Assembly (NCBI GenBank): GCA_017999345.1
Contig: JAGNLY010000004.1
Span: 886 to 64,885 of the forward strand
Reading direction: 5' to 3'
Length of the DNA stretch: 64,000 bases
DNA from: Candidatus Woesebacteria bacterium
GTDB taxonomy: Bacteria > Patescibacteriota > Microgenomatia > UBA1400 > PJMF01
The stretch's first letter is position 1; each line of letters opens with the position of its first letter. Below are positions 13,147 through 59,549 of this stretch, piece after piece. The notes under the pieces are model-generated. The model ran no database searches. It saw only the letters and a list, made by a program, of their open reading frames with translations, and was not told where the DNA came from. Made by a program: the position numbers and the translations under genes.

Positions 13147-13177
13147 CAGGCAACTGGGAGCAAAAAAGGAAATAAAC

Positions 13178-13207: not shown

Positions 13208-13256
13208 TAGTTATTCAGCATAGAAAACTGATATATAAAAGTAAATTAAGGAGACT

Positions 13257-13625: not shown

Positions 13626-13649
13626 TAGCTAATTGTAAATTTGAATTTA

Positions 13650-13677
13650 AACCCCCGCCAATGGCGGGGGTTTTTGA
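13650..13677 (+). terminator. Rho-independent terminator
   Basis: CCCCCGCC (13652-13659), loop AATG, GGCGGGGG (13664-13671), followed by TTTTT. Confidence 0.85.
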
Positions 13678-13731
13678 TTTTCCTCAATAATAAATTTACT
13701 GGTATAATTCAATTAGTATAGTTCAACAAAT

Positions 13732-14157: not shown

Positions 14158-14162
14158 AAAAA

Positions 14163-16964: not shown

Positions 16965-16977
16965 TTTTTAAGTTCTC

Positions 16978-17823: not shown

Positions 17824-17881
17824 TTGATGTCTTAATGTATCAGCTTTTTATTATTCTTACTATACCCGATTAAACATATTT

Positions 17882-17890
17882 TGTTATAAT
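17882..17890 (+). promoter_or_regulatory. Extended -10 (TGTTATAAT) 6 nt upstream of ATG 17897; leaderless candidate
   Basis: TG-n-TATAAT at 17882-17890. Only TAACAG separates it from the start codon, and there is no SD. Confidence 0.45.
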
Positions 17891-17896
17891 TAACAG

Positions 17897-19648
17897 ATGA
17901 TAAAAAGAGGCCTCTTTTTACTAGCTATATTTTTTTGTATTTTTTCTACTAATTCTTTTGATGTAAATGCAGCTGCACCTCTTCCTGATGCCAACGCCGA
18001 AGCAGGAGTTGCCGCTCCACTTCCTCCTGACCCTGCAGATTCCAGTGCTATGGAAGAAGCCTGGGGACCAAAATATGATCAAAGTCAAATTGATAGCTAT
18101 AGATATGCGGTTGAAACAGACAATTGTGCCACTCCTTCGCTAGAGTGCTTAGTTCACCAAACCTCAAGATTTGTTGCAATCGAATGGGTAAATAGCATTT
18201 TATATCCTGGATCAAAAGGATTAACTGATCCAAATGCTCCGGTCACAGACGCAGGAAGCAATAATGTTCTTTCCAACCAAGGCGGATTTGTCGGAGGCAT
18301 TACCTATTTAATGGGCGAAATGTATCGATACCCTGTCGCTAGAACTTCAGTATACGTTGCAGATGTACTTGAGAGCGCACACATCATCACTCCAGCATAT
18401 GCACAAGGACTCGGTTTTGCTTCATTAAATCCAGTTTTAGATCTTTGGAAAGTTTTTAGAAATGTTTCGTACATGCTTTTTGTTTTCATATTCATAGTTC
18501 TTGGTTTTATGATTATGTTTAGACAAAAAATTGGTGGCCAGACCGCAGTTACCGCCCAACAAGCCATTCCAAATGTAGTTGCTAGTTTAATTTTTGTCAC
18601 TTTTTCTTACGCTATCGCGGGATTTTTAATAGACCTAATGTATTTATTGATGTTTATGATTATTGGAATTTTTGGTCAAACAGCGCCTGGAGTAGATGGT
18701 GGAATTATTGACTTTAATATACTAGAACTTATGGGCAGGTTATTTCAAGATGTGAGTGGTTTTTCCAATAATGTTGACATTGTTACCCAATTAATGGGAT
18801 CAATGGTCAACAACGAAACTCTTGGAAATACCTTGGGAATCGTTGGAGGCGTTACTCTTTCATTAGTTTTGGCAGTTGCGATCTTGATTGGAACATTCAA
18901 ATTATTCTTTGAACTACTAAAATCATATGCCACAGTGGTTTTATCTGTTGTTACCGCTCCTCTGCTACTATTGGGTGGTGCATTTCCAGGTAAAAATGTT
19001 TTTGGGCCATGGGTTAAAAACATCGTTGCCAATTTATCAGCTTTCCCTGTCGTATTAATGGTCGTCATACTTTTCTATCAATTCACGGCAGTAGCTCCAA
19101 CAGCCGGTGGTTTTATCCCTCCTTTCTTACTTGGTAGAGGTCAATCTGGTGCAATTACCACTCTGATGGGATTGGCCATCATTCTTGCCTTGCCAGAAAT
19201 AGTTAAAGACATTAAGAAAAATCTTGGTGCTACTGAGGGCTTTGGCACAATGATCTTCAACGCTGCTGGCGCAAGAGCAAAGGAAAGTTGGGGCAGAACT
19301 GTTAAAGCTCCAGGACAAATTTACAATGCTCAGCCATTTGGCACTGGAGATGGAATGCCATTTAGAACCACTGGCACTGAAAGTGCTTTGGAAAGATTTA
19401 TTATTGGCTCCAGAGCTCAACGAAAAAGCGAGTACGATTATCAAAGACAGAGAGCTTTGCATGGTCAGGGTGCTACACCTACTAAAGAGGGTGGTTTATA
19501 TGGCATGTTGGTTAATGATAGGAGAGCTCGACTTAGATCACAGCAAGAAACAGGAAGTGGCGCTGGTGCCAATGTTAACATTAATGTAGATGCTGGTGGC
19601 AACGTTAGAAGAAGAACGTCGCAACAAATAAGAAGAAGACAGCCATAA
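17897..19648 (+). CDS. VirB6/TrbL-like polytopic membrane protein
   Basis: Signal peptide, an exported domain of about 170 aa, then 6 or more hydrophobic helices, then an R/G/Q-rich cytoplasmic tail. The size, topology and position in the locus match VirB6-type channel subunits. No diagnostic motif can be checked by eye. Confidence 0.5.
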   Translation: MIKRGLFLLAIFFCIFSTNSFDVNAAAPLPDANAEAGVAAPLPPDPADSSAMEEAWGPKYDQSQIDSYRYAVETDNCATPSLECLVHQTSRFVAIEWVNSILYPGSKGLTDPNAPVTDAGSNNVLSNQGGFVGGITYLMGEMYRYPVARTSVYVADVLESAHIITPAYAQGLGFASLNPVLDLWKVFRNVSYMLFVFIFIVLGFMIMFRQKIGGQTAVTAQQAIPNVVASLIFVTFSYAIAGFLIDLMYLLMFMIIGIFGQTAPGVDGGIIDFNILELMGRLFQDVSGFSNNVDIVTQLMGSMVNNETLGNTLGIVGGVTLSLVLAVAILIGTFKLFFELLKSYATVVLSVVTAPLLLLGGAFPGKNVFGPWVKNIVANLSAFPVVLMVVILFYQFTAVAPTAGGFIPPFLLGRGQSGAITTLMGLAIILALPEIVKDIKKNLGATEGFGTMIFNAAGARAKESWGRTVKAPGQIYNAQPFGTGDGMPFRTTGTESALERFIIGSRAQRKSEYDYQRQRALHGQGATPTKEGGLYGMLVNDRRARLRSQQETGSGAGANVNINVDAGGNVRRRTSQQIRRRQP

Positions 19649-19739
19649 GCCGCGACTGAGGGAAAATAAAACTTTTATAAAAAAATAATTTGAGCCAATT
19701 AGAACACTCTTCTTGGACAAAATTTTTCAAGACTGAAAA

Positions 19740-22700
19740 TTAATTTTTTGCGCCTAGCTTATCTTTATTAAATAAGAAATGGAGTAGCTTAATTCTATCT
19801 ACAACCCACTGTGTTGTAGGACGAGAGCCTTTATCACGCTTTAGTTGCCAAAATTCTTTGCGTAAGTTTGTTTCCTGAATCTTGTAATGACATCCCTGTG
19901 CCAAATCAAAGCCGTTAGCCAATCTTAATAGATCTGCATGAGTAAATATTTCCTCTATACCTTCATCATTTGCATAGTCCATAGCATCTCTATCTTCTGG
20001 AGCAACTAGATTTAAAGATCGTTTATCATCATATAACTTATATCCAGATTTAGCTATTTTTTCTGTTTCTTCTGGAATGAGATCTAATAATAATTTTGCT
20101 TGGTTTATGACATACATAACTTGAGCGGTATTTAAAAGCGGACCTCCGCTAACGGATTGAACTGATAAATCTTCATAGCTACCAAAATCTAAACCGTTAT
20201 AAGTCTTTTCAATTTTTTCTGGAGATGACATATCTGGAATATTTCTAAAGTCTGGCTTGAATAAATAAAAATTTGCACGCATGAGTACATCGAAGTTAAA
20301 ATATCCTTGAAGCCATGGTTTAAACTTTTTATTAACAAACTCTTCCCTTTTTGCTGGTAGGACTGTCTTTGCTGCCTCAATCATTTTGCCGATTTTTTCA
20401 TTGACATAATATTCCGTCCCATTTTGAGCTCCTTCATTTTTGTCATCTCTAGAAAAAACATATTGCATCATTCTCATGACATCTTGAGGATATTGATTTG
20501 ATTCTGCAAGAAAAGCATTTATCCAATAATCTCTAGACTCTTTATAAAGAGCCTTTAGTCTTTGTTTTCTATCTCCAGATAAAGGTACTGATTCTGAACG
20601 AAAGCCATATTGTTCTAATTCCTCTGAGGTAGCCTTTAATGTGAATTTACCAATGGCTCTTACTAATGCCTTTTGAGTCTCTCCTTGATATCCAAATTCT
20701 TTTGCGACTCTAGACCATTCTTCAGGTCTATCTAAAGTGGTATTCACAGAAATTGGAACTTCTCTTGGACTTGAGAAAAAACTATATTTTTGCTCTGATG
20801 CAGAAGAAATTTTACTTGATGGCCATAAAAACATAATTGTTTGCACAGCTGATTGGTAAATAACTTTGTCAGGATTGGTTGAACGAGATGCCCAGTTTTC
20901 CGGAGTCATTGACTTAATTCCATCTTTGACTGAAAGAATAGTTGCTAAAGTAGCTCTTCCATCACCAAATCCTCCGGGATCTCCCGGCAAAGAATGTGAA
21001 TATTGAGCAGCAACTGGATATGGAGGATAGCCGTGAACCAACACGTCGCCAAAAGGAGCCACAAAGTCTGGGCGAGCCGTATTAGCGTGAGCACTTTCAA
21101 CATAAAGTCCTATAGACGCACCTTTTGCCTCTCCTTCTTGAGCCTGAACCCCAACATTACCACCATTGCCTCTAGTTTCATTCTTGTAACTTGCGTCTAA
21201 GAAAGCTTCTATTCCGCCACCGATTCTGTAACACTCTCCTATGTGATAGGCCATTAAAGATTCTTTTTCTGAAAGACCCATTGATCTCAGGTCGGCAAGT
21301 ATTTTTTCAATCATCGATTTTCTTGACTCATCTGTACTTGTATATCTAGGGACAACTGCATATTCTTTTTTTATTGCATATTTATTTCTTCCATTTGCAT
21401 CCCCAGCCGGTCCGTAAAAAAAGTTTTGTACTGCGGGATTCATACTATTCCAGATAGCTTCTCTTTGTGGTTTTTTCAAAATCATAGCTGACCAAATAGC
21501 CATACTATATTCAACTCCTTCCACAAATCTAAGTTCTTGAGGAGTTGCATTTTCTCTATTACTAAGCAAGGCGCCTAGATTTGGTGAATAACCAGTACTA
21601 TCATATAATTTTTGAATTGCAGCTAGGGCTCCCTCAGGTCCTACGGCCGATTCATTATTTCTTCTAACCACAGCTCTATTGTGCCAAGTAGATATTTCCC
21701 TAAATTTTTCTTTCATTGATCCGCAAAACTCCTTAACCTCAGCATACTCATTTTCATCAAAATAATTAAAAAACTGGTCGAAAAAAGATTCATAAGATTT
21801 AATTCTGTTTTCGTCACTTTGGTCATAAGTAAAACCAAGAAGATTCAAACTAAACTCTTTGGCTGGACCAGCCATAGGATTGACTTTATACGATGTTGTT
21901 CTTGGATCATCAACTAAATCTAATAGTCCGTTTAAGGTGGACACTGTTGCAATTCCAATCATTTTTTCATGGATTATGCCCAAATACTCTGCTAAGGTTT
22001 GTCCTTCTTTTCTTGTCTCATTATCAAGTCTTTGGGCCAAAAATAGTTCTACAGATTTTTTGACTGCTTGCTTATTCCTATAACCAGCTGAATTCTCTAT
22101 TTTTCCTTTTGCTTCTAATAACGGATTCAATATTTTATTAATTCTTTCTTGCGCTGCAACATATTTATTATTTATGTCTGATATCCATGCATTTGCCACC
22201 ACATCATACTTAGAATCTTGATTAAAATAATTTGCACTATTTTTTAACTGCTCAAGTGAATCCAATAGTTCTTGTAATTTGTCAATTTCGGTTAATGAGT
22301 CAACTGGGGTGACACCGGAGATAATTTTTTCGCACTCTTGCTCTAGGTCATTTAAATCAATTCTGACCTCAATTAAAATTCTTACAGACTCTGCTCGTCT
22401 CCATATTTCAGATAAATATGTTTCTTTTCTATTTGATAACTCAGAATCATCAGGTACTTTGGTCTCAATCTTTGCTTTTTCAAGTACTCCATCACTACTA
22501 AACAATGTGCTTTTTATATCTAGTAAATCAGAGTTATCTTCTGGTAAATCTACATCAATTATTGACAGTAAAATATTTAAGTTTTCAAATCCTGGCAATT
22601 CGTTATCAACCCACTCATTGAAGGCCTTATCAAGCAGCTGATCTTTTCTAATCTCCATTTTAATAAGTAGTTCATTTGCCGGCTCAACAACCGTTGTAGA

Positions 22701-23687
22701 TATTTCTTCTAACAAGTCCTCACGTTTCAATGCTTCAGCTATACTTTTAACCCCGCTGCCATCCGACATAGTTAATATTATTTTTTGAACAGCCTCAAGT
22801 CTTTTTCTAAGTAAATTAATTGCCGAAAGGTTTTTGTCTCTTTCGTTTAAAACAATATTCTCATCAACAATCAGCTGAGTTGGGTCAAAATTAGGATCTA
22901 AAATTTTGTTTTCTAGGTAAGTGCTTAATAATTCTAAGTCTTTAAATACTTTTGATTTGCGATAGTCGTCCTCAACATTTTCTCGTTCATTTAAAGATCC
23001 TCTAATTTCATCAAATCTTTTTCGCAAGGCTTTAATTATCTTTTCACAATTATTTAAAAAATCACTTTCTTCTAAATTGTTTATCAGCACTCGATCCACA
23101 ACACTCTCTTCTAATTCAAAAATTGCTTCTTCTATCAGCTTGGCTTCATCTTTACTTCCATTAAATTCTTGTATCAATTTGGCTATTATTTTTCTCTTCT
23201 CTTTAAATCCATTTAGCCAAGATTCAAAATCTACATTTTCTTCTTCTTTTCCTGATTCAGGTTTTGGCGTATCATCCTTATCATCTGGTTTATCTTGATC
23301 GAGATCAATAAAATCATCTTTAGTAAAACCCCACTTCTCAAGCACTAAAAATATATCTTGAAGCTGATTCTTTATTTTTTTAATATAATCTTTTTCTGTT
23401 GAGGATAAATGCGATGTGTCATGACTAGATAAGTATTCCTTAATACTGTTGCCTATAGACTTAATAAAATCAATTATTTTTTTCCTTTCATCTGGTGTGA
23501 AATCACCACTTTCAAGTCTTAATGGATCAATTGATCCCATAAATTCATTTAGTCTTTGAAATAATGAATTTATTAAACCTGAAAAATTTTCAAAGTCTGG
23601 GCTGGTCTCATGGTCGGGAAGCATGGCACTGTAATGCTGATCATCAGCATTATTAGGAGCAAGTATGTCTCTTTCTTCTTTAGTCAT
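19740..23687 (-). CDS. Giant (1315 aa) acidic, helix-rich soluble protein of unknown function
   Basis: Uninterrupted ORF with no signal peptide or TM. The N-terminal ~550 aa are D/E/K/L-rich and heptad-like. I recognise no catalytic motif. Confidence 0.6.
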   Translation of the reverse strand: MTKEERDILAPNNADDQHYSAMLPDHETSPDFENFSGLINSLFQRLNEFMGSIDPLRLESGDFTPDERKKIIDFIKSIGNSIKEYLSSHDTSHLSSTEKDYIKKIKNQLQDIFLVLEKWGFTKDDFIDLDQDKPDDKDDTPKPESGKEEENVDFESWLNGFKEKRKIIAKLIQEFNGSKDEAKLIEEAIFELEESVVDRVLINNLEESDFLNNCEKIIKALRKRFDEIRGSLNERENVEDDYRKSKVFKDLELLSTYLENKILDPNFDPTQLIVDENIVLNERDKNLSAINLLRKRLEAVQKIILTMSDGSGVKSIAEALKREDLLEEISTTVVEPANELLIKMEIRKDQLLDKAFNEWVDNELPGFENLNILLSIIDVDLPEDNSDLLDIKSTLFSSDGVLEKAKIETKVPDDSELSNRKETYLSEIWRRAESVRILIEVRIDLNDLEQECEKIISGVTPVDSLTEIDKLQELLDSLEQLKNSANYFNQDSKYDVVANAWISDINNKYVAAQERINKILNPLLEAKGKIENSAGYRNKQAVKKSVELFLAQRLDNETRKEGQTLAEYLGIIHEKMIGIATVSTLNGLLDLVDDPRTTSYKVNPMAGPAKEFSLNLLGFTYDQSDENRIKSYESFFDQFFNYFDENEYAEVKEFCGSMKEKFREISTWHNRAVVRRNNESAVGPEGALAAIQKLYDSTGYSPNLGALLSNRENATPQELRFVEGVEYSMAIWSAMILKKPQREAIWNSMNPAVQNFFYGPAGDANGRNKYAIKKEYAVVPRYTSTDESRKSMIEKILADLRSMGLSEKESLMAYHIGECYRIGGGIEAFLDASYKNETRGNGGNVGVQAQEGEAKGASIGLYVESAHANTARPDFVAPFGDVLVHGYPPYPVAAQYSHSLPGDPGGFGDGRATLATILSVKDGIKSMTPENWASRSTNPDKVIYQSAVQTIMFLWPSSKISSASEQKYSFFSSPREVPISVNTTLDRPEEWSRVAKEFGYQGETQKALVRAIGKFTLKATSEELEQYGFRSESVPLSGDRKQRLKALYKESRDYWINAFLAESNQYPQDVMRMMQYVFSRDDKNEGAQNGTEYYVNEKIGKMIEAAKTVLPAKREEFVNKKFKPWLQGYFNFDVLMRANFYLFKPDFRNIPDMSSPEKIEKTYNGLDFGSYEDLSVQSVSGGPLLNTAQVMYVINQAKLLLDLIPEETEKIAKSGYKLYDDKRSLNLVAPEDRDAMDYANDEGIEEIFTHADLLRLANGFDLAQGCHYKIQETNLRKEFWQLKRDKGSRPTTQWVVDRIKLLHFLFNKDKLGAKN

Positions 23688-23790
23688 ATATCCACATATT
23701 GTAACATTTTAAATCAAAAACATAAACGCTTTTTAGGATCAAAAATACCAGCTTACTAATCTGTTCTAGCTATCAACATTTATCACAGGG

Positions 23791-23796
23791 TATAAT
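23791..23796 (+). promoter_or_regulatory. TATAAT 6 nt upstream of GTG 23803; leaderless candidate
   Basis: TATAATAGTTTCGTG here parallels TATAATAGGTTTGTG at 14166-14180. Confidence 0.35.
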
Positions 23797-23802
23797 AGTT
23801 TC

Positions 23803-26800
23803 GTGGCTGAAGAAAAACCAAAATTCAAGTTTTTAAGAAGAATTGATGATCTAAAAGACATCATTGGAAATAGTGACGCCAAAGCGAAGGTTTTCTATCT
23901 TAAATCCTTAGAAAAAATTGTTAATACAAAGGGATTTTTTGTGGACGGAACTGGTCCAGAAAGTTTTTCTATTAGTGATGGGGTAATTGTAGCTCCGGCC
24001 AATTTAATAAGCCTCCAAAATGGAGAAATTAATATAGATAGGAACAGATATTATTCGTACATTTTTCCTAGTGAGTTTGTAAAAGCATTATCTGATTTGG
24101 CAAAAATATTTGTTAAAAAGGATCAAACTCTAAGTCAATACACCGATGAGGAAGAAACAGTTAAAAACTGGGGAGATTACAGAGAGAACAATGCCGTTGA
24201 CGAAACAGCATATATAAAAAAAATTAATGAGATTGAAACGCTAAGAAGATTGATTGTAGATGCTTTTCAAAAAAACCCCGATCTTATAAAAGATACCGAA
24301 GACAACGTTCTTCCAATACTTTCGGATGAAAAACAAGCAGAAGAAGGTGTGGATAGCGATAGCCAAGGTGACAAAAATGGCGATGGATCAGACTCTGATA
24401 AAATAAATACCGCCGTAGTTCCAGTTGCAGCTTTACAGCTAACAAGAGCTGACAAAGTCCTCCAAGCCAACGATATTGCTCCAGAAATCAAACAAAAAAT
24501 CCAATATGAGACTGGTTGGTTATACAACCGCGCAGTTTATGAAATGTTCACTGCTCATGGGATAGATAAAAATGACATTGATCCAAATGTTCTTGAGAAA
24601 TTAAGACTGGATGTCTTCGATTTTACTTCCCAAATGGATGAAAAACAGCTTTTTGCAATGCTTGGAAGCGCGTCACAAAGACAAACTGCTCTTTTAAGAT
24701 TTTATCCAAAATTTGCCAGCCAAAATAGAGGAGTTCTTGAGGAATATTATAAAAAATTAACTGGTTCCCCTGCATTTCAAAACCTTGATCAAAAACAAAA
24801 AGAAGAATTTAACCAATTTAATGACAATTTATTAGGTGGGAATATTTCTAAACTAACTTCTCCAATAGAACTACTAAAACAATCTCTAATGGTTGCGCTT
24901 GGGTCTGACAGCGCAAAACTCAACAAAAACGTCCAAAACACTCTTGACGCAATGATTTTGCAATACGGCATAGATCAAGAATATTTTGCACAAGACGAAA
25001 ATGGACAAGTCATCTTAGTTAAAGGAAATAAAAACAAACACGACGTTATAAATATTCTTAAAAACATGGATGATGAAAAAATTAAAATAATTTTTGATCT
25101 CCCAGGATCAACAACATCTAAAGAAATAAGACAATTAAAAGAAGTTCTTTACAGCTACACAACCTACAGAGCATCTGAACTAACTCTTCATGTTATGGAC
25201 ACGTCCCTGTCTAGAGGACTGATAAAAGTCAGCGATGATGAAGCCAAAAAGCTAGCAATTAAAGGTTCTGGAACAGAAGCAATCCATAGAGATGTTTTAA
25301 CAAACACTAGAAGTGCAATAGAAGAAAATGGCGCAGAAACTGTGGCTGGAGGACTAGACAGCAAAAACGAAAACAGCAGAAAAAAAGATAAAATCAACAA
25401 AATTACCAAGCAATATAAAACTTTTCTTCCACTATGGGCAAATTTATCTGCTGAAGAACAAAGAATTGTTTATAATCAGTTTAACCTCCCGTTTCAACAA
25501 GGCAACAAGGACGCAGGACTTGAATTCATTCCCGAGTTTTTATTTTTTGATATTTCAACCTTAAACACATTTAAAAACATTAAAAACGCTGAAAAAATGA
25601 CTGCCGATCAGCAAGCTGAAGCCCTAAAGTTGTATGAATTACTCGATAGGGAGCAACTTATAAAAGATGTTGAGGAACTACAGTCCTTAGATTTTATCGC
25701 ACTAGGCAACCAAATTGCTGATGAGAAAAAATATGGTCAGTTTTTACAAGATTCATATATCTACAACACCGAGTTAGAAAAACAGTTGTTAATGGCTGAC
25801 TTTGTCAACGATGGAGCATCTATTGAAGATCAAGTAACCTATGTTTCATCTGGAGCAGGAAATACAAATCCAAGTATAAACAATGGTTTTTTCAATAAGC
25901 ATTCTCCAAGAGAGCTCATGGAGTTTGATCAACATATTATAGATTCTGACTATAATTTTTCACAACCAAATCAACAATTTTCAAAATATGGCGGGGTTTC
26001 TAGCAGAATTAAAAATTCAAAAATATATAAAGGTCTTACTAAAAGATTTGGTGGTGACAAACTAAATCCAGCTAAAAAAATGGCTGGTTCTTTGGGAAAA
26101 TCGGCTGCTTCAAAAACTTTCGTTAACGTGGCAAAAGCCGCTAATCTTGCTCTTCCCGGCGGAGCTGTTCTAAACAAAATTTACGATTTTGGAAATAAAG
26201 TCGGTTTTAAAAATGCCTCATTTATTATAGGCGGACTTCTAACTGCATTAGTTGCGCAAACAATTCGTGCGCTCTCAACTGTAGGCGGATTCATTGGAGG
26301 AGCACTTGGCGGTACAGTAGGATTTATCGTTGCCGGCGGGCCTGTTGGAATCATTCCAGGCGTTATTGTAGGATCAAATGCGGGCTTCATGGTGAATTCA
26401 ACTCCTTTGGTCAACTCAATTTTTGGAAATAACGGAGGTCTTCCAGCAACAGAAGCTGCAATGGCTAATTCATCCGCAAACACCGCTGCACTAAAAATAG
26501 CCGGCAAGGAAGCGCTTCTAGGTGCTACTGCCGATGTTTTTTTTGGTGTTCCAATTGCAATTTTGGCCCCTGGTATGGCAATGTTTATTGGCATAGTAGT
26601 TACAATTCATGCGATTTTTACAATTCAAAGTGCTTTTTTAATACCTGTGCCAACTGGTTTATCATCGATGGGCGGTGGATTAATTTTAGGAGATTTGGCC
26701 TGTTTCCAACTGATGCCGGGCGGAGATTCTCAAACAATAGTACTTGAGTCTGGAGAATCTGTAACACTAACCTCTCTCGATTGGGATCAGGCTTCAATTG

Positions 26801-34105: not shown

Positions 34106-35218
34106 ATGAAACTTAAAGTATTACAAGAAAATTTAAACAACTCATTAAATAATTTACAGAAAGCAATTCCTAGTAGACCTCAGTTACCCATTCTTTCTTC
34201 AATTTTAATAGAATCAACAAAAGACGGTTGCACTGCTTCAGCAACAGATCTTTATTTCGGAGTTAGATCTGTTATTCAAGTCGACTCCGAGATTGAAGGA
34301 AAAGTTGTAGTTCCCGGAAAGCAATTCAAAGAAATTGTTTCTTCACTAAGTCCAGGAGTATTGACTTTAGAGTCTGACGAAGGAAGCTTGAATATAATCT
34401 CTGAAAAGACAAAAACAACGCTCTCATGTCAATCTAGTGATGAATATCCTCCTTTTCCTCAAGTTGAAGGAGAAGAATTTATACTTTCTTTTGATCAGTT
34501 AGACAAAATTGAGAAAAATGTCTCTTTTAGCACATCTATTGACATGGCGAGACCTGTTTTAACAGCAATTCTTTTTAAATTTTCAAACAACTCTCTTGAG
34601 GCAGTTGGAACTGATGGATTCAGGCTATCAGTTTTAAAATTAGCAAATAATAAAGATAATATCGAGGAAAGTTCTTTCTTAGTGCCGGCGAAGGCACTGT
34701 CTGAAGTTTTTAGAATTATGGTTAAACTAGAGGCAAAGGAGATAAAACTCAAAATTTCTAGAAAATTAAAACAAATTTTCTTTTCAATTAATGGCGTTCT
34801 TATTTTTGTTAGACTAATTGACGGCAATTATCCTCCGTATGAAAAAATAATTCCTTCAGAAGTAAAAACAGAAGTAATTATCGATTCTGACGAGTTGATG
34901 GATAATTTGAAGAGAGCTATGATCTTTGCTAGAGAGTCTTCAAATATTGTGAGACTTATTGTCAACGAAAATGATATGGAAATTAAGTCATCCTCCCCTT
35001 CATTCGGAAACTACAGTGGAAAAATTAAGAACGTCAAAATAAAAGGAACTCCTGGAGAAATTGCTTTTAATATTAAGTATTTGATGGAATATCTATCCTC
35101 AACGAAAGAAAACGAGCACTGGTTTGGTATGAACGAAAGCCTTAGGCCAGCTATTTTTAAACCAGGAAAGAACAGCGACCATAGGTATGTTATTATGCCG
35201 TTTAAAGTAAATGGATAA
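34106..35218 (+). CDS. dnaN: DNA polymerase III beta sliding clamp
   Basis: 370 aa. N-terminus MKLKVLQENL...LQKAIPSRPQLPILSSILIE. DGFRLS and RLIDGNYPPYEKIIP motifs. Follows dnaA. Confidence 0.92.
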   Translation: MKLKVLQENLNNSLNNLQKAIPSRPQLPILSSILIESTKDGCTASATDLYFGVRSVIQVDSEIEGKVVVPGKQFKEIVSSLSPGVLTLESDEGSLNIISEKTKTTLSCQSSDEYPPFPQVEGEEFILSFDQLDKIEKNVSFSTSIDMARPVLTAILFKFSNNSLEAVGTDGFRLSVLKLANNKDNIEESSFLVPAKALSEVFRIMVKLEAKEIKLKISRKLKQIFFSINGVLIFVRLIDGNYPPYEKIIPSEVKTEVIIDSDELMDNLKRAMIFARESSNIVRLIVNENDMEIKSSSPSFGNYSGKIKNVKIKGTPGEIAFNIKYLMEYLSSTKENEHWFGMNESLRPAIFKPGKNSDHRYVIMPFKVNG

Positions 35219-37723: not shown

Positions 37724-40700
37724 ATGAATCAGTTAGAAACTCAGTTATTATCTGACGGCCCTTTAGTGGTTTTGATTGGAAGCAACAGCTCTTTTCGTTT
37801 TCACGTGTCGGAAGTTCTCAAAAAATTTGATTTAAATATCAAACAGTGTTCATCGTCTGAAATTTTGGAGGGAAAAGTTGATCTAAACATTATTTCTGGC
37901 GCTTATAAGATTATCTGGCTCTATGAGAATAATGCTGAAAATTTAGAAAATTATCTTGATTTGTTGAGTGTCTTGAAACAAGTGCAAACTCCAGTAGTTA
38001 TTGTGGCAAATATTTTTTCAAGCATAAGCTCTTTTTCTAGTGATTTATTTAAAGAATGGCTGGATTTATCCAACAAACAGAGTCGTTTTATAGAAGATTG
38101 TATTTTGCATTTGCCCAAAGCAAGTTTTATTTTTGGCCAAAACCTAATAGTTGATTCTCAAGAGAATGACATTTTAAGATTTTTAACCAAAAACATTCAC
38201 AGAAATATCATTATTGACCCAAGTTTTAATTTAAATTTTTTAAACCCTGAGACATTTGTCAAAATAGTTGAAGATTCTTTGTTTAGACCTGGAAAACAAG
38301 CTAGTGTTTTAGTGAGAGGGATAGACGTTCATTCACAAGTAGTTGTTGGGTCAATTAAAAAACTATATGACGTGTATCACAACTCAAATATAGAAATAAT
38401 TAATGACACCGTGTCGATCGCAAACTCTATCCCCTTCTCTGCTAAGGAAAATATTGTTGATTTTGATTTTAATTCGATTGTTGCCGGCTTTGTAAAAAAA
38501 CTTAAAGCTCCTCAAGTAGAATTAATTAAAAAAGAAATAATTTTTAAGCCAAATATTCCTCAACAAGGTCGCGTTGAAGTAAAAGAAATAATTTTTAAGC
38601 CAAATGTTCCTCAACAAAGTCGCGTTGAAGTAATTGAAAAACAAGAAATAAAACTTACGCCAAAACCTCCTGTTTACGAGAGCCAAGACACTAATTCATC
38701 TTCATTGAGAATTGAGACTACTGAGGTAACTGAGAAAAAATTCTTTGAAAATAAATATATTCCTGAAGTAAATTATGCTCAGAACATAGTAAAAACAGGT
38801 GATCAATCTCTTAACGAAAAGTCAAATATAGTCAAGAAAAACATTGATTCTATAAGCGTCGACGACGAAATAAAGCGAATTTTTAAGAGCACTAGGACTG
38901 AAACAAAAGTCGATAGAATTAGGGAAATTGCCAAAAATACTAAAAAAAATTCAAAGCGAAGTGGTAGAAAAAAAGTGTTGTTTGTTGGCGGGATTGTCGC
39001 TACTGGAGTGGCAAGTGCAGTCTTGGTGTTGGCAGGAGTATTTTTTGCTTCTCAATCATTTCTCAAAAAAGAGTTGGTTAGTTTTGTCTTAAAAAAATCT
39101 AGTGGCGAAGACATGACGCTTGAGAATAAAAAACTAAAGACGATAACAGATTTTGTTAATTTTCAGGCTAATGGCTATTCATTAATTTTAGACACGGACA
39201 CAATTTCTAGTGCTAAATCTATGGTGGCAGCTAGTAATGGACTTCAATCCGCAATAGAAACACTCTCTGAAGTCAATGAAACGTCCAAAAATCTTGTTTT
39301 GAAGATGCTTACTGGAAATGGTAATAAAACTAGTGAAATGGCCGAAATTTTGGGTCAGCAGTCTCAAAATGCATATGAAGCTCTTTCTGATTTAGAAGCT
39401 AATTTGAAACTTGTTAATTTAGACATTAGTTCAGAGGAAAAAGAAAAAGCATTTGGCAATTATGAGGCAGAATTAAGATCAATAAAAAACGATATATCAG
39501 TACAAGCGCAATTACAACCAATTTTGTCATCCCTTACTGGAGAAGATTCTAAAAAAACATACGCTGTTATTTTCCAAAATAATCAAGAGTTGAGGCCTAC
39601 AGGAGGATTTATTCAGGCCGTTGCTTTATTAAATTTTGATGGCGGCAGTCTAGTTTCTCATGATGTTTATAGCGTTTATTCCTTGGATCAAAAATTATCT
39701 GGCGCAGTTGTCCCTCCAGAAGAAGTAACCACATACTTGGGTGAGGAAAAATGGTATTTAAGAGACAGCAACTGGAACCCAGACTTTCCTTCCACGAGTA
39801 GACAAATCGAGTGGTTTATCTCTAAAAGCACCGGAGTTCAAGTGGATGGTGTGATCGCCGTTAATTTATTTACTATCAAGGACTTGTTGGAGGCAATAGG
39901 CCCGGTGGATTTACCAGATTACAACGAAGTAATAAACTCAAAAAATATTTTAGAGAGAATGGAGTTCCACTCAGAGGTAGTTTTGATAGATTCTCCTGAT
40001 TCAATCGACTATTCCGTAGTTTTATTGGAAAAAATTCTTGAAAAAGTTACGAAGATAAGTGATGAAAAAGTCAGTCCCCTTCTCTATTCACTGAAAAAAT
40101 CAATTTCAGAGAACCAGCTTGCCTTCTCAGTGAGTGAAAAAGAGAATCAACAAGTTTTACATGATTTAGGCTGGACTGGAGGTTTGATTAAACCAAGCTG
40201 CCCAGCTGAGCTGAGCTTGGTTGACTGCAGAGTCGACAGCATTTCTCAAGTTGAGGCTAATGTGGGAATAAATAAGGCCAATTATTATCTTGATAGAGCT
40301 ATCGATCAAAAAATAACAATAGATAAAGAAAAAGCAGTTCACCAGAGAAAAATCACCTTTAAAAACAATGCTAAATCTAATTCTTGGCCAAAAGGTACAT
40401 ACAAATCTTTCCAAAGGTTTTTTATAGATGAAGACTCACTCGTTGAGGGTGTTTTTATAAACGGCTCGCCATTAATTGAGGAGCAAATCTCGAAGAAGAT
40501 TTCTAATGGTTTCTTAGAGATTGGAATTAGCGTTGATGTGCCAATCCAAAAAACACTAGAAGTTGAGATTGACTACTCTACCCCACTTAATTTTGATAAG
40601 GGATTCTCTTATGTCTTTTTTAACAAGAAACAGGCAGGAACTTCTGGTGATCCTGTTAATATTGTTTTTGAACATTCAAGCGATATATCACCTGTTTTAA

Positions 40701-42138: not shown

Positions 42139-44559
42139 TTATGATAACGGAGTGGGCCAGTCAGAAACAATGAGTAATTTTTCATTGACCATTTTCTTCT
42201 CGAGTAGTTCTTGCCAAATTGCTTCTGTTACGAACGGCATAAAAGGATGCAAAAGTTTTAGAAAAACTATTAATCCTGTTTTAGTTTTTTCTAAAGAGAT
42301 ATTTCCTTTTTTTGTTTCTTCAATACAGATATCACAAAACCAATGCCAGAATTCATTGTAGACAGTTTCTGCGGCAAGGCCAATTTTTAAATCTGAAAGA
42401 TGATTAGTTGTCTGTAAAATGACATCATTTAATTTGTTAATAAATTCAGCATCACCGGGCGCATTTTTAGTCTTGATTTGATCATTTAGTGACTTGGCCT
42501 GTTTATCTTCAGTCTTGATTTGTTCATTTAGTGACTTGACCTGTTCATCTTCAGTCTCGATTTGATCCTGTGGAGATTTTAGGCTTGGATCATTTGTAGA
42601 TTCAAACATCAGCATTGTAAACCTAGCGGCATTCCAGATCTTATTTGTTAGATTTCTCATGGCTTTAAAATCAGGGCTTCCAACAGATTTATCTAGTCCT
42701 GGAGTTGATCTGATTACAAGAGCCATTCTGAGTGCGTCAGCGCCAAATTCTTGTTTTACGCTTAAAGGATTAATAACATTTCCCTTAGACTTGCTCATTT
42801 TTTTACCTTTTTCATCTCTGACTAAGCCATGTAGATACACTTTTTCAAAAGGAGATTTTTTAGTTAAATAGCTACCCAAAAGCATCATTCTCATTACCCA
42901 AATTGGTAAAATATCGTAACCGGTTTCCATTACTGAAGTAGGGTAGAATCTTTCAAAGTCATTTTTTAAATTTGTTTTTAGAGTTACCACCGGCCACTGA
43001 CTAGAGGAAAACCAAGTGTCAAACGTGTCTGTTTCTTGAATGTACTTTTCTGAACCATCATTTTTGGTCGGATCTTCAACCGAGACAGAGTAGGGGACAG
43101 AAATTTCAGCAGTAATAATTTGGATTTTTTCTTTAATTTTTTCTATTGAGTTTTCTTTAAGAAGTTCTTTTAGGGTGCCCGTCTGGTATTCTCCAGAATT
43201 ATTAATAAATCCGGCGGTGATTTTATCTTCATTTCCATTGATCTTATACCAAATCGGAATAGGAATACCCCAGACTATTTGTCTAGAAATATTCCAATCT
43301 TTCAAGTTTTTTAACCAATTAACTAAAATTGTTTTTCTTCCAGCACCATATATTTCTGTTTCTCCGGTTTCAATTGATTCAAGGGCATTTTTTACTAGAT
43401 TAAAGTCTTTTTTTGACGAATCGGCAACTCTGATAAATAGTTGAGGAAGTGGTAATGGCTCAATTTGTCTTGAACAGCGATAGCAAACACTCAAGGCATG
43501 TTTGTAATTTTTGTCGATAGAAACCAAAAGTGAATTTCCATTGGAATCTTTATATGATTGATAATCATCTAAAACTTGCTTTCTAGCGTTCACAATCCCA
43601 AGTCCATTATATTTCTCTGGAGAATTGTATATTTTCCCTTTGGTATTAATTATCGGAAGTGGCTTTTCCTCTATTTCGTCTTTATGATCCTCCCACATGC
43701 GGAAGTCATTTTGATCATGATATGGGGTAACTTTTACTGCGCCAGTTCCAAACTCGGGATCAACATAATTGTCGGCAATCACTGGAACAACTTTTTTGCC
43801 CCACGGATATTCAACTTCTATTTTTGTTCCAATAAATTTTTTATATCTTTTGTCCTTTGGATTTACCGCAACGGCAACGTCTCCAAAAATTGTTTCAAGT
43901 CTCACGGTGGAAACTTGAAGAGGGCCATATTGAATTGTGTATAGGGGATCTTGTTTTTCTTCGTGATTAACTTCTAGTTCTGAATAACTGGTTCCACAGT
44001 TTATACAGTAGTTAACTAGCTTTAAATCGCGATATATCAATCCATCTTTGTAAAGATTCATGAAAGAACCTAAGACATTTTCTACAATATCTTTGTCTAA
44101 GGTAAACTTGAATCTAGACCAGTCTGCACTAGCTCCTAGTTTTTTAATTTGATCTTTGGCAACCTCAGAATTTTCTTGAACATAATCCCAAATCATTTTG
44201 AATAGGGTAGAGCGATCAAAATTAAAGCGGCTTTTGCCTTCTTTTTTTAGTTTTTTTTCAAAAACAAATTGAGTTTCAATTCCCGCGTGATCTGTGCCTG
44301 GAATCCAGACTGTGTCTTCTCCCAACATTCTGTGATATCTAACCATAATATCCTCGATGGAGACAAACATTGCGTGACCCACGTGGAGAGGATCGTTTGC
44401 ATTAGGAGGGGGCATTATGATTGAAAACTTTTTTTGACTGACTTTAGCTTTGTTATTTTCTCTTAATTTTTTGACACTATCAGGATTAAAGGCGTCATTT
44501 TCCTCCCATAATTTATATATAGCGTCTTCAGTTAGTTGGGAGTTATATCTCGAGTCCAT
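42139..44559 (-). CDS. valS: Valine--tRNA ligase
   Basis: PPPNANDPLHVGHA (HIGH motif), WIPGTDHAGIETQ (ValRS-diagnostic) and KMSKSKGN. Length 806 aa. Confidence 0.9.
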   Translation of the reverse strand: MDSRYNSQLTEDAIYKLWEENDAFNPDSVKKLRENNKAKVSQKKFSIIMPPPNANDPLHVGHAMFVSIEDIMVRYHRMLGEDTVWIPGTDHAGIETQFVFEKKLKKEGKSRFNFDRSTLFKMIWDYVQENSEVAKDQIKKLGASADWSRFKFTLDKDIVENVLGSFMNLYKDGLIYRDLKLVNYCINCGTSYSELEVNHEEKQDPLYTIQYGPLQVSTVRLETIFGDVAVAVNPKDKRYKKFIGTKIEVEYPWGKKVVPVIADNYVDPEFGTGAVKVTPYHDQNDFRMWEDHKDEIEEKPLPIINTKGKIYNSPEKYNGLGIVNARKQVLDDYQSYKDSNGNSLLVSIDKNYKHALSVCYRCSRQIEPLPLPQLFIRVADSSKKDFNLVKNALESIETGETEIYGAGRKTILVNWLKNLKDWNISRQIVWGIPIPIWYKINGNEDKITAGFINNSGEYQTGTLKELLKENSIEKIKEKIQIITAEISVPYSVSVEDPTKNDGSEKYIQETDTFDTWFSSSQWPVVTLKTNLKNDFERFYPTSVMETGYDILPIWVMRMMLLGSYLTKKSPFEKVYLHGLVRDEKGKKMSKSKGNVINPLSVKQEFGADALRMALVIRSTPGLDKSVGSPDFKAMRNLTNKIWNAARFTMLMFESTNDPSLKSPQDQIETEDEQVKSLNEQIKTEDKQAKSLNDQIKTKNAPGDAEFINKLNDVILQTTNHLSDLKIGLAAETVYNEFWHWFCDICIEETKKGNISLEKTKTGLIVFLKLLHPFMPFVTEAIWQELLEKKMVNEKLLIVSDWPTPLS
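42469..42567 (-). repeat. In-frame 42-bp tandem repeat (~2.4 copies) inside valS
   Basis: Units at 42469-42510 and 42511-42552, plus a partial unit at 42553-42567. They encode EDKQAKSLNDQIKT, EDEQVKSLNEQIKT and DQIET. Confidence 0.85.
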
Positions 44560-54077: not shown

Positions 54078-54279
54078 ATAAAAATTATAGCACCTCTACA
54101 AGTTGGAGTATATTGGTTTGTTGGTTGAAGGCCAAATTGTTTATTCCAGACAAGAGGATAGTTATCCACATTAAATTATATTTATATATTGATGTGAATA
54201 ACTATTGTATTTCTCTCTATAAATTATAAATTTAATTAAATATAGGTTGCTAATTTATTTAAGACAAATAACTTATAGG

Positions 54280-54660: not shown

Positions 54661-54867
54661 ATGTTTTTGCCTGGTAGATTTGATAGGCCAACTTCGTTAG
54701 GTAGAGAAAAGCTCGAAGCAAGACTTCGCGGCTTATATCTTCAAATTCAAGGTATGATTAGCATAGGAATTTTAGGATCAACAGATCAATCTAAAAAAGA
54801 AGAAGCTAATGTTGAGGTTGAGGCAGCCGCTCCAACGGAAGAAGAGATATCAGCAGAAGAGAATTAG
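54661..54867 (+). CDS. Small hypothetical protein (68 aa), acidic C-terminus
   Basis: A strong SD (AGGGGGT) lies 5 nt upstream of the ATG. I recognise no homology. Confidence 0.4.
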   Translation: MFLPGRFDRPTSLGREKLEARLRGLYLQIQGMISIGILGSTDQSKKEEANVEVEAAAPTEEEISAEEN

Positions 54868-55097
54868 GTTTAAATTTATTCGTTGTCTTTCGCTTTTATT
54901 TGACATTTCACACATTATTTGGAATAATATCACCAACTTCGTGATTTCTTATTAATGTCCCTAAAGAATGTTTCTACAGAACTTGCTTCATAAATGGGTT
55001 TCTCGTAATAAAAATTATCATTGTAGGTTGCAATTATTTATTTAAATTATCATTTTTACCATAAAAAAATATTGTTATATTAATTAACGAACAAATT

Positions 55098-57847: not shown

Positions 57848-57860
57848 CAAGCTAAATCAG

Positions 57861-57869
57861 TGATATAAT
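57861..57869 (+). promoter_or_regulatory. Extended -10 (TGATATAAT) 5 nt upstream of the obg ATG; leaderless candidate
   Basis: TG-n-TATAAT at 57861-57869. Only GTATT lies before the ATG at 57875. Confidence 0.45.
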
Positions 57870-57874: not shown

Positions 57875-59263
57875 ATGATAGATTTAGTAAAGTTAATTTT
57901 AACAGCTGGTGACGGTGGTCTTGGTAAAGTTTCATTTTTGCGTGAAAGAAGAATTCCAAAAGGTGGCCCTGATGGTGGTGATGGTGGTAAGGGTGGATCT
58001 GTAATTATTCGCGGCAACAAAAATCTCGCAACTCTCAAAAATTTCAAAGGCAAAGTTCTGTTTGAAGCAGAAGATGGCCATCCAGGTGAAAAAAAGAACA
58101 TGATTGGAGCCAAGGGCAAAGATTTGGTGTTAGATGTTCCAATCGGAACATCAATTTCAGTTGTTGCTGAGAATGGTAATGCCAAAAAAAGAAGAACTTT
58201 TGTTGGTATTAATTCTCAATTAAATAGAGATGGCATCAGACACGAAAAATACTACTTAGAAAAAGAAGGAATGTCTGTCCCACCAAGAGAAGTTGATAGC
58301 TTTTATCTTCTCAGAGAAGCCGTATTTGATGAAAAATTAGCCAAAAGTAAAGAGAGTTTGGAGGATGTAGACTTAGAAGTTTTTGATTTGGAAGCTTTTG
58401 AATCAACCAAAGCAGAAGTAGATGAGCCAATTTATCCTGACGTTCAAACAATTTTATCTGCAGTAAGAGGATTCATTCCAGTTGAAGTCGAGAGAATACT
58501 GGAAGATGGACAAGAAGTTGTCATCTGTCAGGGTGGTTTTGGAGGCAGAGGAAATGATAGATTCAAGAGTTCGAGGAACGTTACTCCTTTGGAAGCAGAG
58601 TATGGATCTTTTGGTGAAAAAAGAGCAGTGGTTTTGGAACTTAAGCTTCTGGCTGATGTTGGACTTGTAGGCTTTCCTAACGCTGGAAAGAGCACTTTAT
58701 TATCTGTTGTTACTAAGGCAAGGCCAAAAATTGCATCTTACCCATTTACGACAATAGAGCCTAATCTTGGAATTCTGGAATTTGGTGATTATCAACAAAC
58801 AGATGGAATTGAAGAAATCGTAATTGCTGATATTCCTGGATTAATTGATGGTGCAAGCGAAGGAAAAGGCTTGGGTCATTCATTTTTAAGACACGTAGAA
58901 AATTGTTCAACAATGTTATATGTGTTGGCTCTAAATGAAGCAGATGTATTTGATCAAGAAGCCACCGACAAACAGAAGGCAGAAATTTTGTATAAACAAT
59001 TAACCAGTCTGCAAAAAGAACTTGAAAACCATGCAAAAAAGAGCAGTGGAGCACTTAATAGTTTGGGATCAAAGTTGTTTGAGGATAAGAAATTTTTGGT
59101 TAGTGTTAATAAAATAGATCTATATTCTGAAAGTTTAATAAGCGAAATAAAGAAACTATTTAAGAAAAAAAAGATTTCACCAATATTTTTTAGTGGTGCT
59201 ACTAAAATTGGAATGCCAGAACTAGCAGGCAAGCTAAGAGAAGTTGTTTCGTTGAATAAGTGA
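57875..59263 (+). CDS. obg: GTPase Obg/CgtA with ~110-aa insertion in the Obg fold
   Basis: GDGGLGKVSFLRERRIPKGGPDGGDGGKGG, GGFGGRGNDRF, LKLLADVGLVGFPNAGKSTLL and DIPGLIDGASEGKGLG. Insertion between VPIGTSI and VVICQGG. Confidence 0.9.
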   Translation: MIDLVKLILTAGDGGLGKVSFLRERRIPKGGPDGGDGGKGGSVIIRGNKNLATLKNFKGKVLFEAEDGHPGEKKNMIGAKGKDLVLDVPIGTSISVVAENGNAKKRRTFVGINSQLNRDGIRHEKYYLEKEGMSVPPREVDSFYLLREAVFDEKLAKSKESLEDVDLEVFDLEAFESTKAEVDEPIYPDVQTILSAVRGFIPVEVERILEDGQEVVICQGGFGGRGNDRFKSSRNVTPLEAEYGSFGEKRAVVLELKLLADVGLVGFPNAGKSTLLSVVTKARPKIASYPFTTIEPNLGILEFGDYQQTDGIEEIVIADIPGLIDGASEGKGLGHSFLRHVENCSTMLYVLALNEADVFDQEATDKQKAEILYKQLTSLQKELENHAKKSSGALNSLGSKLFEDKKFLVSVNKIDLYSESLISEIKKLFKKKKISPIFFSGATKIGMPELAGKLREVVSLNK

Positions 59264-59281
59264 TTTTAATAAATATTTAAA

Positions 59282-59541
59282 AGCTCTCTGCTAAGCAAAG
59301 CTTAGATGTTCGCTTTTAAACATTTGGTAAATTTAAGGATCGTAACAGGTTAGCTCTCTGCTAAGCAAAGCTTAGATGTTCGCTTTTAAACATTTGGTAA
59401 AGCTAAGAATTACGTAGTAAAAACTCTCGCAGGCAGTTCGCCTGAATGTTCGTTTTTGAATATTTATTAAAATTAAGAACCACAAAAGAAAAGCTCTCTG
59501 CTAAGCAAAGCTTAGATGTTCGCTTTTAAACATTTGGTAAA
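59282..59541. repeat. Four-unit 70-bp-period tandem array (50-nt two-hairpin core plus 20-nt semi-variable linker)
   Basis: Cores start at 59282, 59352, 59422 and 59492. Cores 1, 2 and 4 are identical (AGCTCTCTGCTAAGCAAAGCTTAGATGTTCGCTTTTAAACATTTGGTAAA). Core 3 is diverged but keeps both hairpins. Confidence 0.9.
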
Positions 59542-59549
59542 GCTAAACC

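Follow-up and report, generated by a model that had tools for sequence, protein, structure and literature searches.

A 70-bp tandem array downstream of obg in a Candidatus Woesebacteria genome is built from a small family of long-hairpin elements, tentatively read as 3'-end elements

What is an array of tandem hairpins doing at the point where two convergent genes meet? The question is raised by a stretch of 64,000 nucleotides from a Candidatus Woesebacteria bacterium (GenBank assembly GCA_017999345.1, contig JAGNLY010000004.1, positions 886 to 64,885), which is referred to as the window and numbered from its first letter. The array spans 59282-59549, consists of four units and fills the spacer between obg and a convergent gene encoding a 709-aa TPR protein. 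A first description made from the letters alone (the sequence-only reading) had taken each 70-bp unit for a plus-strand RNA with two hairpins. The analysis presented here shows the array to be one complete unit and three units without the 5' arm of a long-hairpin element of about 75 nt, which represents a small, undescribed family in Microgenomates (Woesebacteria/Pacebacteria-like bacteria within the candidate phyla radiation, CPR). We tentatively favour, with slightly less than even confidence, the reading that the array is a lineage-specific tandem amplification of a hairpin element of the 3' untranslated region (3' UTR), which would terminate, process or stabilise transcripts.

The repeat is the strongest tandem repeat of the window (59280-59541; period 70 bp, 3.8 copies, score 281 in Tandem Repeats Finder), and a repeat search of the window spaced its units 70, 70 and 70 bp from start to start, so the four-unit layout and the phasing given by the sequence-only reading were correct. 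The same is true of the three identical 50-nt cores at 59282, 59352 and 59492, among which there are 0 mismatches; the 49-mer GCTCTCTGCTAAGCAAAGCTTAGATGTTCGCTTTTAAACATTTGGTAAA lies exactly at 59283, 59353 and 59493, with 0 occurrences expected from shuffles. The divergence of the third core (59422) is also real, although in ungapped register it amounts to 20 of 50 positions and not 19. The 20-nt linkers are 30-60% identical in pairwise comparison (6-12 of 20 positions), and those of units 1, 2 and 4 reach only 30-40% though their cores are identical. No further copy was found in the window, either at 2-3 mismatches or by a covariance model. The hairpin of unit 1 is the longest inverted repeat of the whole window (I1). 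An independent Logan assembly (L002; loci from other assemblies carry such numbers) has the same junction from obg to unit 1, its contig breaking within unit 1. This shared junction, together with linkers that differ from one another and so give every repeat junction its own sequence, excludes an assembly artefact, and the structure of the array is confirmed as real and non-random.

The conserved fold is one long hairpin, composed of an outer stem, an asymmetric internal loop and an apical stem. The obg stop codon TGA (59261-59263, plus strand; ORF 57875-59263) stands at its start, the first paired base of the element being 59265. The left arm of the outer stem, ATTTTAATAAATATTTAAAA (59263-59282, plus strand), is present only once and was recognised from the inverted repeats I2 and I3, the alignment and the fold of the whole array; it pairs imperfectly with the right arm of unit 1 and at 19 of 20 positions with the right arm of unit 3, TTTTGAATATTTATTAAAAT (59454-59473, plus strand), which is its best complement (I3). 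Unit 1 (59282-59351, plus strand) is the sole complete element. The minimum free energy (MFE) fold of 59263-59335 is one long hairpin (-17.3 kcal/mol, z-score -3.9), and the unit scores 76.5 bits with the covariance model. Its closing stem AAAAGC/GCTTTT (59279-59284/59312-59317, plus strand) encloses the internal loop TCTCTG/ATGTTC (59285-59290/59306-59311, plus strand) and the apical hairpin CTAAGC-AAA-GCTTAG (59291-59305, plus strand), which can be read straight off the sequence; the right arm extends to about 59331 on the same strand, followed by the 20-nt linker.

The remaining units, all on the plus strand, keep a closing stem of only 3-6 bp. Unit 2 (59352-59421) has the core of unit 1 without the left arm, a closing stem reduced to AGC/GCT, its own linker and an ambiguous fold (z -1.0). 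Unit 3 (59422-59491) is the diverged one, with the closing stem AAAAAC/GTTTTT, the loop TCTCG/AATGTTC and an apical hairpin CAGGC-AGTTC-GCCTG (59430-59444) that is again legible directly. The closing pair of the outer stem (columns 30/60), G:C in units 1, 2 and 4, is exchanged on both sides for A:T in unit 3, and thus covaries within the window itself. Unit 4 (59492-59549) has the core of units 1 and 2 and the closing stem AAAAGC/GCTTTT; its MFE fold comprises closing stem and apical hairpin (z -0.08), and it ends 8 nt short of the stop codon of the TPR protein gene, TAG at 59550-59552 on the minus strand, convergent with obg. Read on the minus strand, unit 4 presents a hairpin with a U-rich tail behind it, GCUUUUCUUUUGUGG.

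Other members of the family were searched for with a pattern made of the positions common to the identical and the diverged units, the apical stem being left free. Among 185,579 species-representative genomes one other genome matched, a Patescibacteria metagenome-assembled genome (MAG; L001). In JGI metagenomes the pattern found the same organism (L004) and a second one (L003/L013), L013 being from assembly FLOH01, the same assembly as L006. A third carrier lineage, L014 (= L015 = L019), whose diverged right arm misses the pattern, was reached via MiaB homologues, as was a lineage without the element at the miaB site (L016-L018). In each of the two other genomes matched, the pattern scans returned one locus, a copy number that is to be read with strict scan patterns and the loss of repeats from MAGs in mind. 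A covariance model built from 8 units and run over 209 kb, namely the window and ten related loci, returned only the known sites. Two weak matches of this model (L006:5960 and L010:6044, E ~2.7), located inside a TraG-like gene, were discarded as noise, and a match in a viral collection (L005, two pattern scans) was discarded as chance, being inside a coding sequence and having neither CTCTC nor a hairpin; the left-arm pattern had no match in the viral collection. Further members of the family thus come from three other Microgenomates genomes, and none from the rest of the window.

In L001, L013 and L014 the element occupies the gap from miaB to miaA, two genes that share a strand, and starts 0-1 nt past the miaB stop; miaB and miaA are not present in the window. 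Over the whole family it begins 0-2 nt after the stop codon of the upstream gene, and its orientation relative to that gene is alike at the obg and miaB loci. The stop codons just before the first paired base are TGA in the window, TAA in L001 and TAG in both L013 and L014. There is a single copy in L013 and L014, and in L001 a second copy, truncated at its 5' end, accompanies the complete one with a period of 53 bp. Tandem duplication of the element's 3' part has taken place in two lineages, that of the window and L001, and independently in each. The strict 70-bp phasing that the sequence-only reading had counted as a sign of function is accordingly not shared by the relatives, which carry a single copy or a 53-bp doublet. 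The left arm of the window is essentially that of L001 and L013, and the similarity of the elements follows neither host nor locus relatedness.

Covariation was examined in an alignment of the 8 units. The outer stem of full-length copies measures 20-23 bp, is A/U-rich and covaries, the internal loop (5' CUCUC-N, 3' (A)AUGUUC) is invariant over units and genomes, and the apical stem of 5-6 bp is free in sequence and covaries as well: it is CTAAGC/GCTTAG in units 1, 2 and 4, CAGGC/GCCTG in unit 3, TCGAA/TTCGA in L001 and L014, and TTGGG/CCCAA in L013, with 4 of 5 pairs changed on both sides across genomes. Outer and apical stems together are 79.9% paired, compared with 38-52% in slid controls, and the unpaired cells come mainly from units without a left arm and from the apical stem of units 1, 2 and 4, which is out of register by one column. 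Changes on both sides were counted in 11 pairs, a number equalled in 0 of 500 shuffles; 7 of the pairs with such changes belong to the outer/closing stem. RNAalifold applied to the 4 full-length elements returned the same single hairpin with 28 pairs, 8 of them compensated, and every full-length copy has the long hairpin as its MFE fold on either strand (z -3.9 to -7.1). For example, the arms of L001 are TTTTTTAATAAATATTTAAAAAC and GTTTTTAAATATTTATTAAAAAA, and those of L014, TTTATCAAACATTTTGAAAA / TTTTCAAAATGTTTGATAAA, differ from them at five positions, all of which are compensated, leaving 20 of 20 pairs.

The three carriers at the miaB locus allowed the element to be compared with its own neighbourhood. 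In the last 300 nt of miaB, third-codon identity is 54-58% among L001, L013, L014 and L016. The elements beside it are 74-86% identical, with differences concentrated in compensated pairs. Since the identity of the element exceeds that of the third codon positions, purifying selection acts on the hairpin and its loops at this orthologous site, and this comparison of sequences is the strongest argument that the family is functional. The general view of the sequence-only reading, that the array is a structured and selectively maintained element and not a product of chance, is in agreement with these results.

Its two-hairpin model of the unit was only partly right. Preservation of the apical hairpin (hairpin 1) by compensatory change was verified, and it extends to the 4 of 5 double-sided pairs seen across genomes. 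Hairpin 2 (ATGTT/AACAT) can be paired in 8 of 8 units and shows the one-sided changes as described, but it has no double-sided change and competes with the outer stem. Among the 8 sequences three of its pairs are invariant and three are one-sided; at one pair three rows have G-C and five have G-U, at another three have G-U and five A-U. Hairpin 2 and the outer stem cannot coexist, because the former uses right-arm bases that the latter needs. An H-type pseudoknot of closing stem and hairpin 2 was also considered and rejected, as loops of 1-2 nt would have to span a 6-bp stem. The step from G-U tolerance to a plus-strand RNA, which took its evidence from hairpin 2, does not carry over to the outer stem.

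What stands in this spacer in related genomes bears directly on what the array might do. The 70-bp array is absent from the orthologous obg/TPR spacer of six relatives (L006, L007, L009-L012), so conservation at the orthologous site, which the sequence-only reading would have led one to expect, was not observed. The spacers of L010 (49 nt), L011 (30 nt) and L012 (31 nt) contain a canonical bidirectional terminator, AAAAAACCACCAGTTTTTAGCCGGTGGTTTTTT in L010 with little beyond it, and the same type in L011 and L012. In L009 (184 nt) and L007 (205 nt) unrelated short tandem repeats precede a canonical terminator, which in L007 is another one; the form shared by L009, L010, L011 and L012 is AAAAAACCACC..GGTGGTTTTTT. 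The L006 spacer (124 nt) contains a different long hairpin with a near-perfect outer stem of 26-27 bp. The repeats of L007 (L007:11293-11394) are A/T-rich with units of 16, 17 and 31 nt, and that of L009 (L009:11565-11595) is a 15-nt unit present 2.1 times; the spacer 3' of obg is repeat-prone across the group. In the window no CCACC/GGTGG terminator exists, and a scan with a terminator consensus gave two marginal matches, both inside the array, at 59430-59444 on the plus strand (tail AATGTTCGTT) and at 59510-59496 on the minus strand, in unit 4. A canonical intrinsic terminator (a G+C-rich stem of >=5 bp with a U-run within 0-2 nt) was found in the relatives' spacers and was not found in the array. 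As the array is absent in the relatives and the terminator is absent in the window, the array is lineage-specific and occupies the terminator's place; the element has replaced the canonical terminator in the window.

These observations suggest how the array may work. It would be transcribed as the 3' UTR of obg and, antisense, as that of the convergent TPR gene, and transcription converging from the two sides would be stopped or insulated at its hairpins. Alternatively, the internal loop may be cut by a double-strand-specific RNase such as RNase III, so that the upstream mRNA would keep a protective stem at its 3' end; the geometry of the element, an outer stem of 20-23 bp with an asymmetric loop in the predicted fold, fits an RNase III processing hairpin, for which some two turns of double-stranded RNA and an internal loop are expected. 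Between miaB and miaA the hairpin would set one cistron apart from the other. The additional units probably arose by slippage-type duplication of the 3' part of the element and would add modules of closing stem, loop and apical stem, the conserved functional core. The family itself may have spread as a palindromic mobile or recombining module. Structure, selection, stop-codon position, low copy number and patchy distribution are established traits of the family, and from the analysis as a whole we infer that it would function as an RNA 3'-end element. The multi-hairpin terminator or insulator for both convergent genes that the sequence-only reading had listed comes close to this, except that the hairpins are not canonical terminators.

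Several points weigh against a 3'-end function of the array. The element is missing at the orthologous sites of close relatives and so is dispensable there. In every unit the T-run lies 6-7 nt from the apical stem, and what comes after the full hairpin on the plus strand is A-rich or of mixed composition. Units 2-4 alone fold no better than shuffled sequences (z -1.0, -2.7 and -0.08), and the whole plus-strand array reaches a z-score of only -1.8. G.U pairs and C.A mismatches, the latter equal to G.U on the other strand, have about the same frequency in the outer stem, and the strand is therefore not callable from wobble. Identical cores beside diverged linkers are not explained by simple duplication; they require core-restricted conversion, selection or repeated insertion. 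The sample consists of four distinct lineages only. Finally, loci that are not orthologous and belong to rather distant genomes have nearly identical arms, a hint of mobility over local function.

This last point leads to the alternative that survives best, although we regard it as rather unlikely: a selfish palindromic repeat, similar to miniature inverted-repeat transposable elements (MITEs) or to REP, ERIC and Correia elements. Under it the outer stem would be a pair of terminal inverted repeats, insertion or recombination would have destroyed the terminator, and the array would be neutral slippage. The patchy distribution, with the element lacking at the obg site of the six relatives and at the miaB site of L016-L018, is as expected, and so are the nearly identical arms at two non-orthologous loci, the FLOH01 Obg being only 71% identical to that of the window. 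Inverted arms of 20-23 bp such as terminal inverted repeats would have are present, perfect in L001, L013 and L014 and imperfect in unit 1. Unrelated short tandem repeats were gained by the same spacer in L007 and L009, and a second palindromic family, described below, shifts place and orientation among relatives. However, many dispersed copies were not seen, each matched genome having one locus and the 209 kb no extra one, and no transposase or integrase was detected among the 54 ORFs of the window. A target-site duplication was not recognisable when the filled sites L001, L013 and L014 were compared with the empty site L016, the flanks being too diverged for one to stand out. Furthermore, the five arm changes at the miaB site are all compensated next to synonymous sites that are near saturation, which points to selection on pairing and is not expected of immobile terminal repeats. 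The 3'-end element and the selfish repeat are not exclusive readings, as the REP, ERIC and Correia elements show. A literature search on MITEs in Patescibacteria found nothing relevant.

Improbable, but still to be weighed, is the model of the sequence-only reading, in which the 70-bp units are plus-strand RNAs of two hairpins, either tandem small RNAs (sRNAs) or an RNA-protein docking array, possibly processed to unit length. Hairpin 2 is pairable in all units and its changes from G-C to G-U and from G-U to A-U work only on the plus strand, the MFE fold of unit 3 is exactly two hairpins (z -2.7), the invariant loops CUCUC and AUGUUC could dock a protein, and the cores stay identical as the linkers drift. 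Against this, hairpin 2 lacks double-sided changes and is incompatible with the better-supported outer/closing stem, the related genomes L013 and L014 have one copy and not an array, and no partner protein gene is linked, the neighbours being syntenic housekeeping genes in array-less relatives. There is also no promoter-like site in or before the array, and tandem sRNA genes are accordingly disfavoured. A more far-reaching variant, which we consider a long shot, would make the family a new structured-RNA class in CPR bacteria. Here the invariant loop would dock a dedicated protein or RNA partner, the array would be cut into unit RNAs as a 3'-UTR-derived regulatory array, and the right arm would switch between partners, namely the left arm or closing stem on the one hand and AUGUU on the other.

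Very improbable is a site acting at the DNA level, either an iteron set or a dif/att-type recombination site duplicated by integration, with the palindromes serving as symmetric sites or cruciforms. One locus per matched genome in the pattern scans, perfect palindromic arms each with TAAATATTTA, and the intergenic position between convergent genes could be understood in this way. The array is, however, about 25 kb from dnaA-dnaN (32261-35218) and not at the terminus, and cumulative GC skew has no extremum at 59 kb; no recombinase gene is nearby, and the 70-bp spacing is not a whole number of helical turns. The arms of L014 have changed at five positions with pairing kept, which a sequence-specific site would not do, and the apical stem is free in sequence. 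The iteron or protein-binding set proposed by the sequence-only reading is thus a poor fit to stems that change their sequence yet keep pairing. A single dif site near the terminus was rejected because of the proximity to dnaA. A LexA (Cheo) box, an IHF site, a K-turn and attC, compared by eye with consensus sequences, did not fit either.

Hardly credible is a reading as guide RNAs, in a TIGR stem-loop or CRISPR array, or as a series of tiny ORFs (ATG TTC GCT TTT AAA CAT TTG GTA AA., MFAFKHLVK...). TIGR arrays do occur in CPR bacteria with a known stem-loop variant (PMC12045711), the layout of repeat and variable linker is similar, and the conserved 3' loop has an ATG in every unit. However, the 54 ORFs yielded no Nop/Tas or Cas domain, the mid-array repeat is 40% diverged, the loops are invariant and 5-7 nt long as against two variable 8-12-nt spacers, no Shine-Dalgarno sequence precedes the ATG, L014 has non-conservative differences in the predicted peptides, the frame of the conserved GCTAA motif is another one in L013, and 70 is not a multiple of 3. 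A CRISPR array was rejected on the 20 of 50 differences of the third repeat, the partly homologous 20-nt linkers of 0.4 times the repeat length, the lack of Cas and the single-copy homologues.

Unit 3 leads to a second group of hairpins. Its apical 13-mer, AGGCAGTTCGCCT, occurs once in the window with 0.02 expected, and it recurs on the plus strand in L009, L010 and L012 just past the stop of the M23 peptidase gene, upstream of the promoter-like TGTTACAAT of obg. In L006 it sits at the tip of the large palindrome of the obg/TPR spacer and is on the opposite strand. These sites define a second hairpin family (L009:9867-9937, L012:760-827 and L010:9942-9965, plus strand; L006:11456-11536, core on the minus strand; window 59431-59443) with the core GAGC(AT)-AGGC.AGTTC.GCCT-AAAAGGCTC within variable, compensated outer stems. 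It has the same architecture as the first: the outer stem is long and covaries, the loop is small, and an apical stem of 5 bp carries the loop AGUUC (z -6 to -11). Unit 3 looks like a chimera of both families. As the second family is likewise located at gene 3' ends, long hairpins abutting stop codons recur in these genomes. Upstream of obg in the same three relatives (L009:9950-9985, L010:9962-9985, L012:845-870) a conserved extended -10-like motif, GCGTGTTACAAT(A/C)C(C/T)TCAG, was noticed, whose equivalent in the window is GTGATATAAT at 57858-57868, in a much shorter spacer of 27 nt.

The window has a G+C content of about 35%, and its Obg is 100% identical to a Candidatus Woesebacteria entry. 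Its genes include a pilin cluster resembling those of type IV secretion systems (T4SS), rho, a LysM/M23 peptidase gene, obg, the TPR gene and type IV pilin-like genes, and the order rho, M23, obg, convergent TPR, pilins is kept in relatives with Obg 66-74% identical. Scans with Pfam and NCBIfam found no Nop (Tas), Cas, transposase or integrase domain in the 54 ORFs, several large ORFs at 14-27 kb having no Pfam match. In Rfam 15 no family apart from tRNAs reached its gathering threshold in the window or in 7 related loci; around the array every match was far below gathering, with a best E-value of 0.34, and no tRNA or tmRNA was found.

Some further features of the window and its relatives were recorded. 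Eight small T4SS-pilin-like genes (PF18895) form a run at 10496-14157, followed at 14163-27276 by four large ORFs (583-1315 aa) without Pfam match and then by PrgI-like and TraG/VirB4-like genes; the stretch 10496-27276 is a CPR-type conjugation or T4SS-like island adjoining dnaA. An inverted DnaA-box-like pair, ATAGTTATCCACA ... TGTGAATAACTAT, with 23-nt arms that are 83% complementary, lies at 54158-54205 within the 1-kb spacer from a TraG/TrwB-like gene to rho, about 20 kb from dnaA. In the long spacer upstream of rho there is a small ORF (MFLPGRFDRPTSLGREKLEARLRGLYLQ..., 54662-54868), called as a 68-aa gene in L002 (2401-2607), which may be a rho leader peptide or a small protein. A site at 54714-54728, which has the tail AGCTTTTCT in common with the array unit, lies within this ORF and was treated as chance. 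Obg itself (57875-59263) has 462 aa, and its N-terminal half is about 100 residues longer than the 327-aa model, residues 208-458 aligning to model positions 107-325; the relatives have 411-513 aa, so the length of the insert is variable. In-frame repeats were seen in a DUF4012 ORF (38530-38633, near-perfect tandem repeat of 51 bp x2) and in an ORF for a class I, LeuRS-like aminoacyl-tRNA synthetase (42462-42567, 42 bp x2.5). In relatives, giant ORFs of 2295 to >5400 aa lie 3' of the pilin genes (L007:15656-21269, L009:16483-21542 and a JGI contig of P0007); they have N-terminal phage-integrase SAM-like domains and a Peptidase_S74 domain.

The family is undescribed but familiar in kind, an intergenic palindromic or 3'-UTR hairpin element, and its resemblance to known systems is graded. 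Like the mycobacterial interspersed repetitive units (MIRUs), the array consists of direct tandem repeats of 40-100 bp that are intergenic in operons, follow the orientation of the flanking genes and vary in copy number. MIRUs are dispersed over some 40 loci and are presumed to contain small ORFs that overlap, whereas the array family is defined by a covarying hairpin and its small ORFs are not conserved. TIGR arrays are similar in being stem-loops in tandem, also from CPR bacteria, whose palindromic stems vary and whose loops have short conserved motifs (PMC12045711). In TIGR units, however, two variable spacers of 8-12 nt stand between box C and box D (PMC12045711), and a TIGR array adjoins a Tas (Nop-domain) gene, whereas the present array neighbours obg, TPR and pilin genes and no Nop domain was detected. 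A bidirectional intrinsic terminator would have the same position, and AAAAGC/GCTTTT resembles its flanking pair of A-tract and T-tract; in the array, by contrast, the G+C-containing apical stem is a 6-7-nt loop away from the T-run and the stems are weak.

REP/BIME and ERIC elements of enterobacteria are closer, being imperfect palindromes just past stop codons or between cistrons and sometimes clustered. They stabilise the upstream mRNA against 3' exonucleases, and near a stop codon they can affect translation termination. REPs are about 35 nt long, G+C-rich, highly repeated, arranged in alternating orientation in BIMEs and mobilised by RAYT transposases, whereas the array element is A/T-rich, low-copy and in direct repeats; no RAYT or IS200-like gene was found in the window. 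The RNase III signals of the T7 early mRNA (R1.1 type) are likewise irregular hairpins between cistrons, in which a conserved asymmetric internal loop separates an upper from a lower stem; once the loop is cleaved, the upstream message retains a protective hairpin at its 3' end. The miaB-miaA copies share the layout and position of R1.1, with no relation in sequence.

CPR/Patescibacteria have small genomes whose non-coding elements are almost undescribed, and the array gives a concrete example in which a hairpin family can replace a classical terminator and amplify in tandem. Should it be a signal for RNase III-type processing or termination, it would make transcript ends easier to annotate in uncultured Microgenomates; should it be a mobile palindrome, it would be among the first such elements defined in the group. 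The Correia elements (CREE) of Neisseria combine both sides. They are 100-155 bp long with at least a hundred copies per genome and, like the present element, are small, bounded by inverted repeats around a conserved core and placed beside genes in intergenic regions that are transcribed or, in the present case, predicted to be so. The array element differs from them in its length of about 75 nt, its one locus per matched genome, its unrelated arm sequences and its tandem direct units, and evidence for mobility of its family is limited to the patchy distribution. CREE transcripts are described as forming long hairpins which bind RNase III and are cleaved or protected, altering the expression of adjacent genes (PMC2649163). 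This is the mechanism that we infer, by analogy, may operate in the array. Either way, the array would be a variation on the terminator biology of REP, ERIC and Correia elements rather than a new principle.

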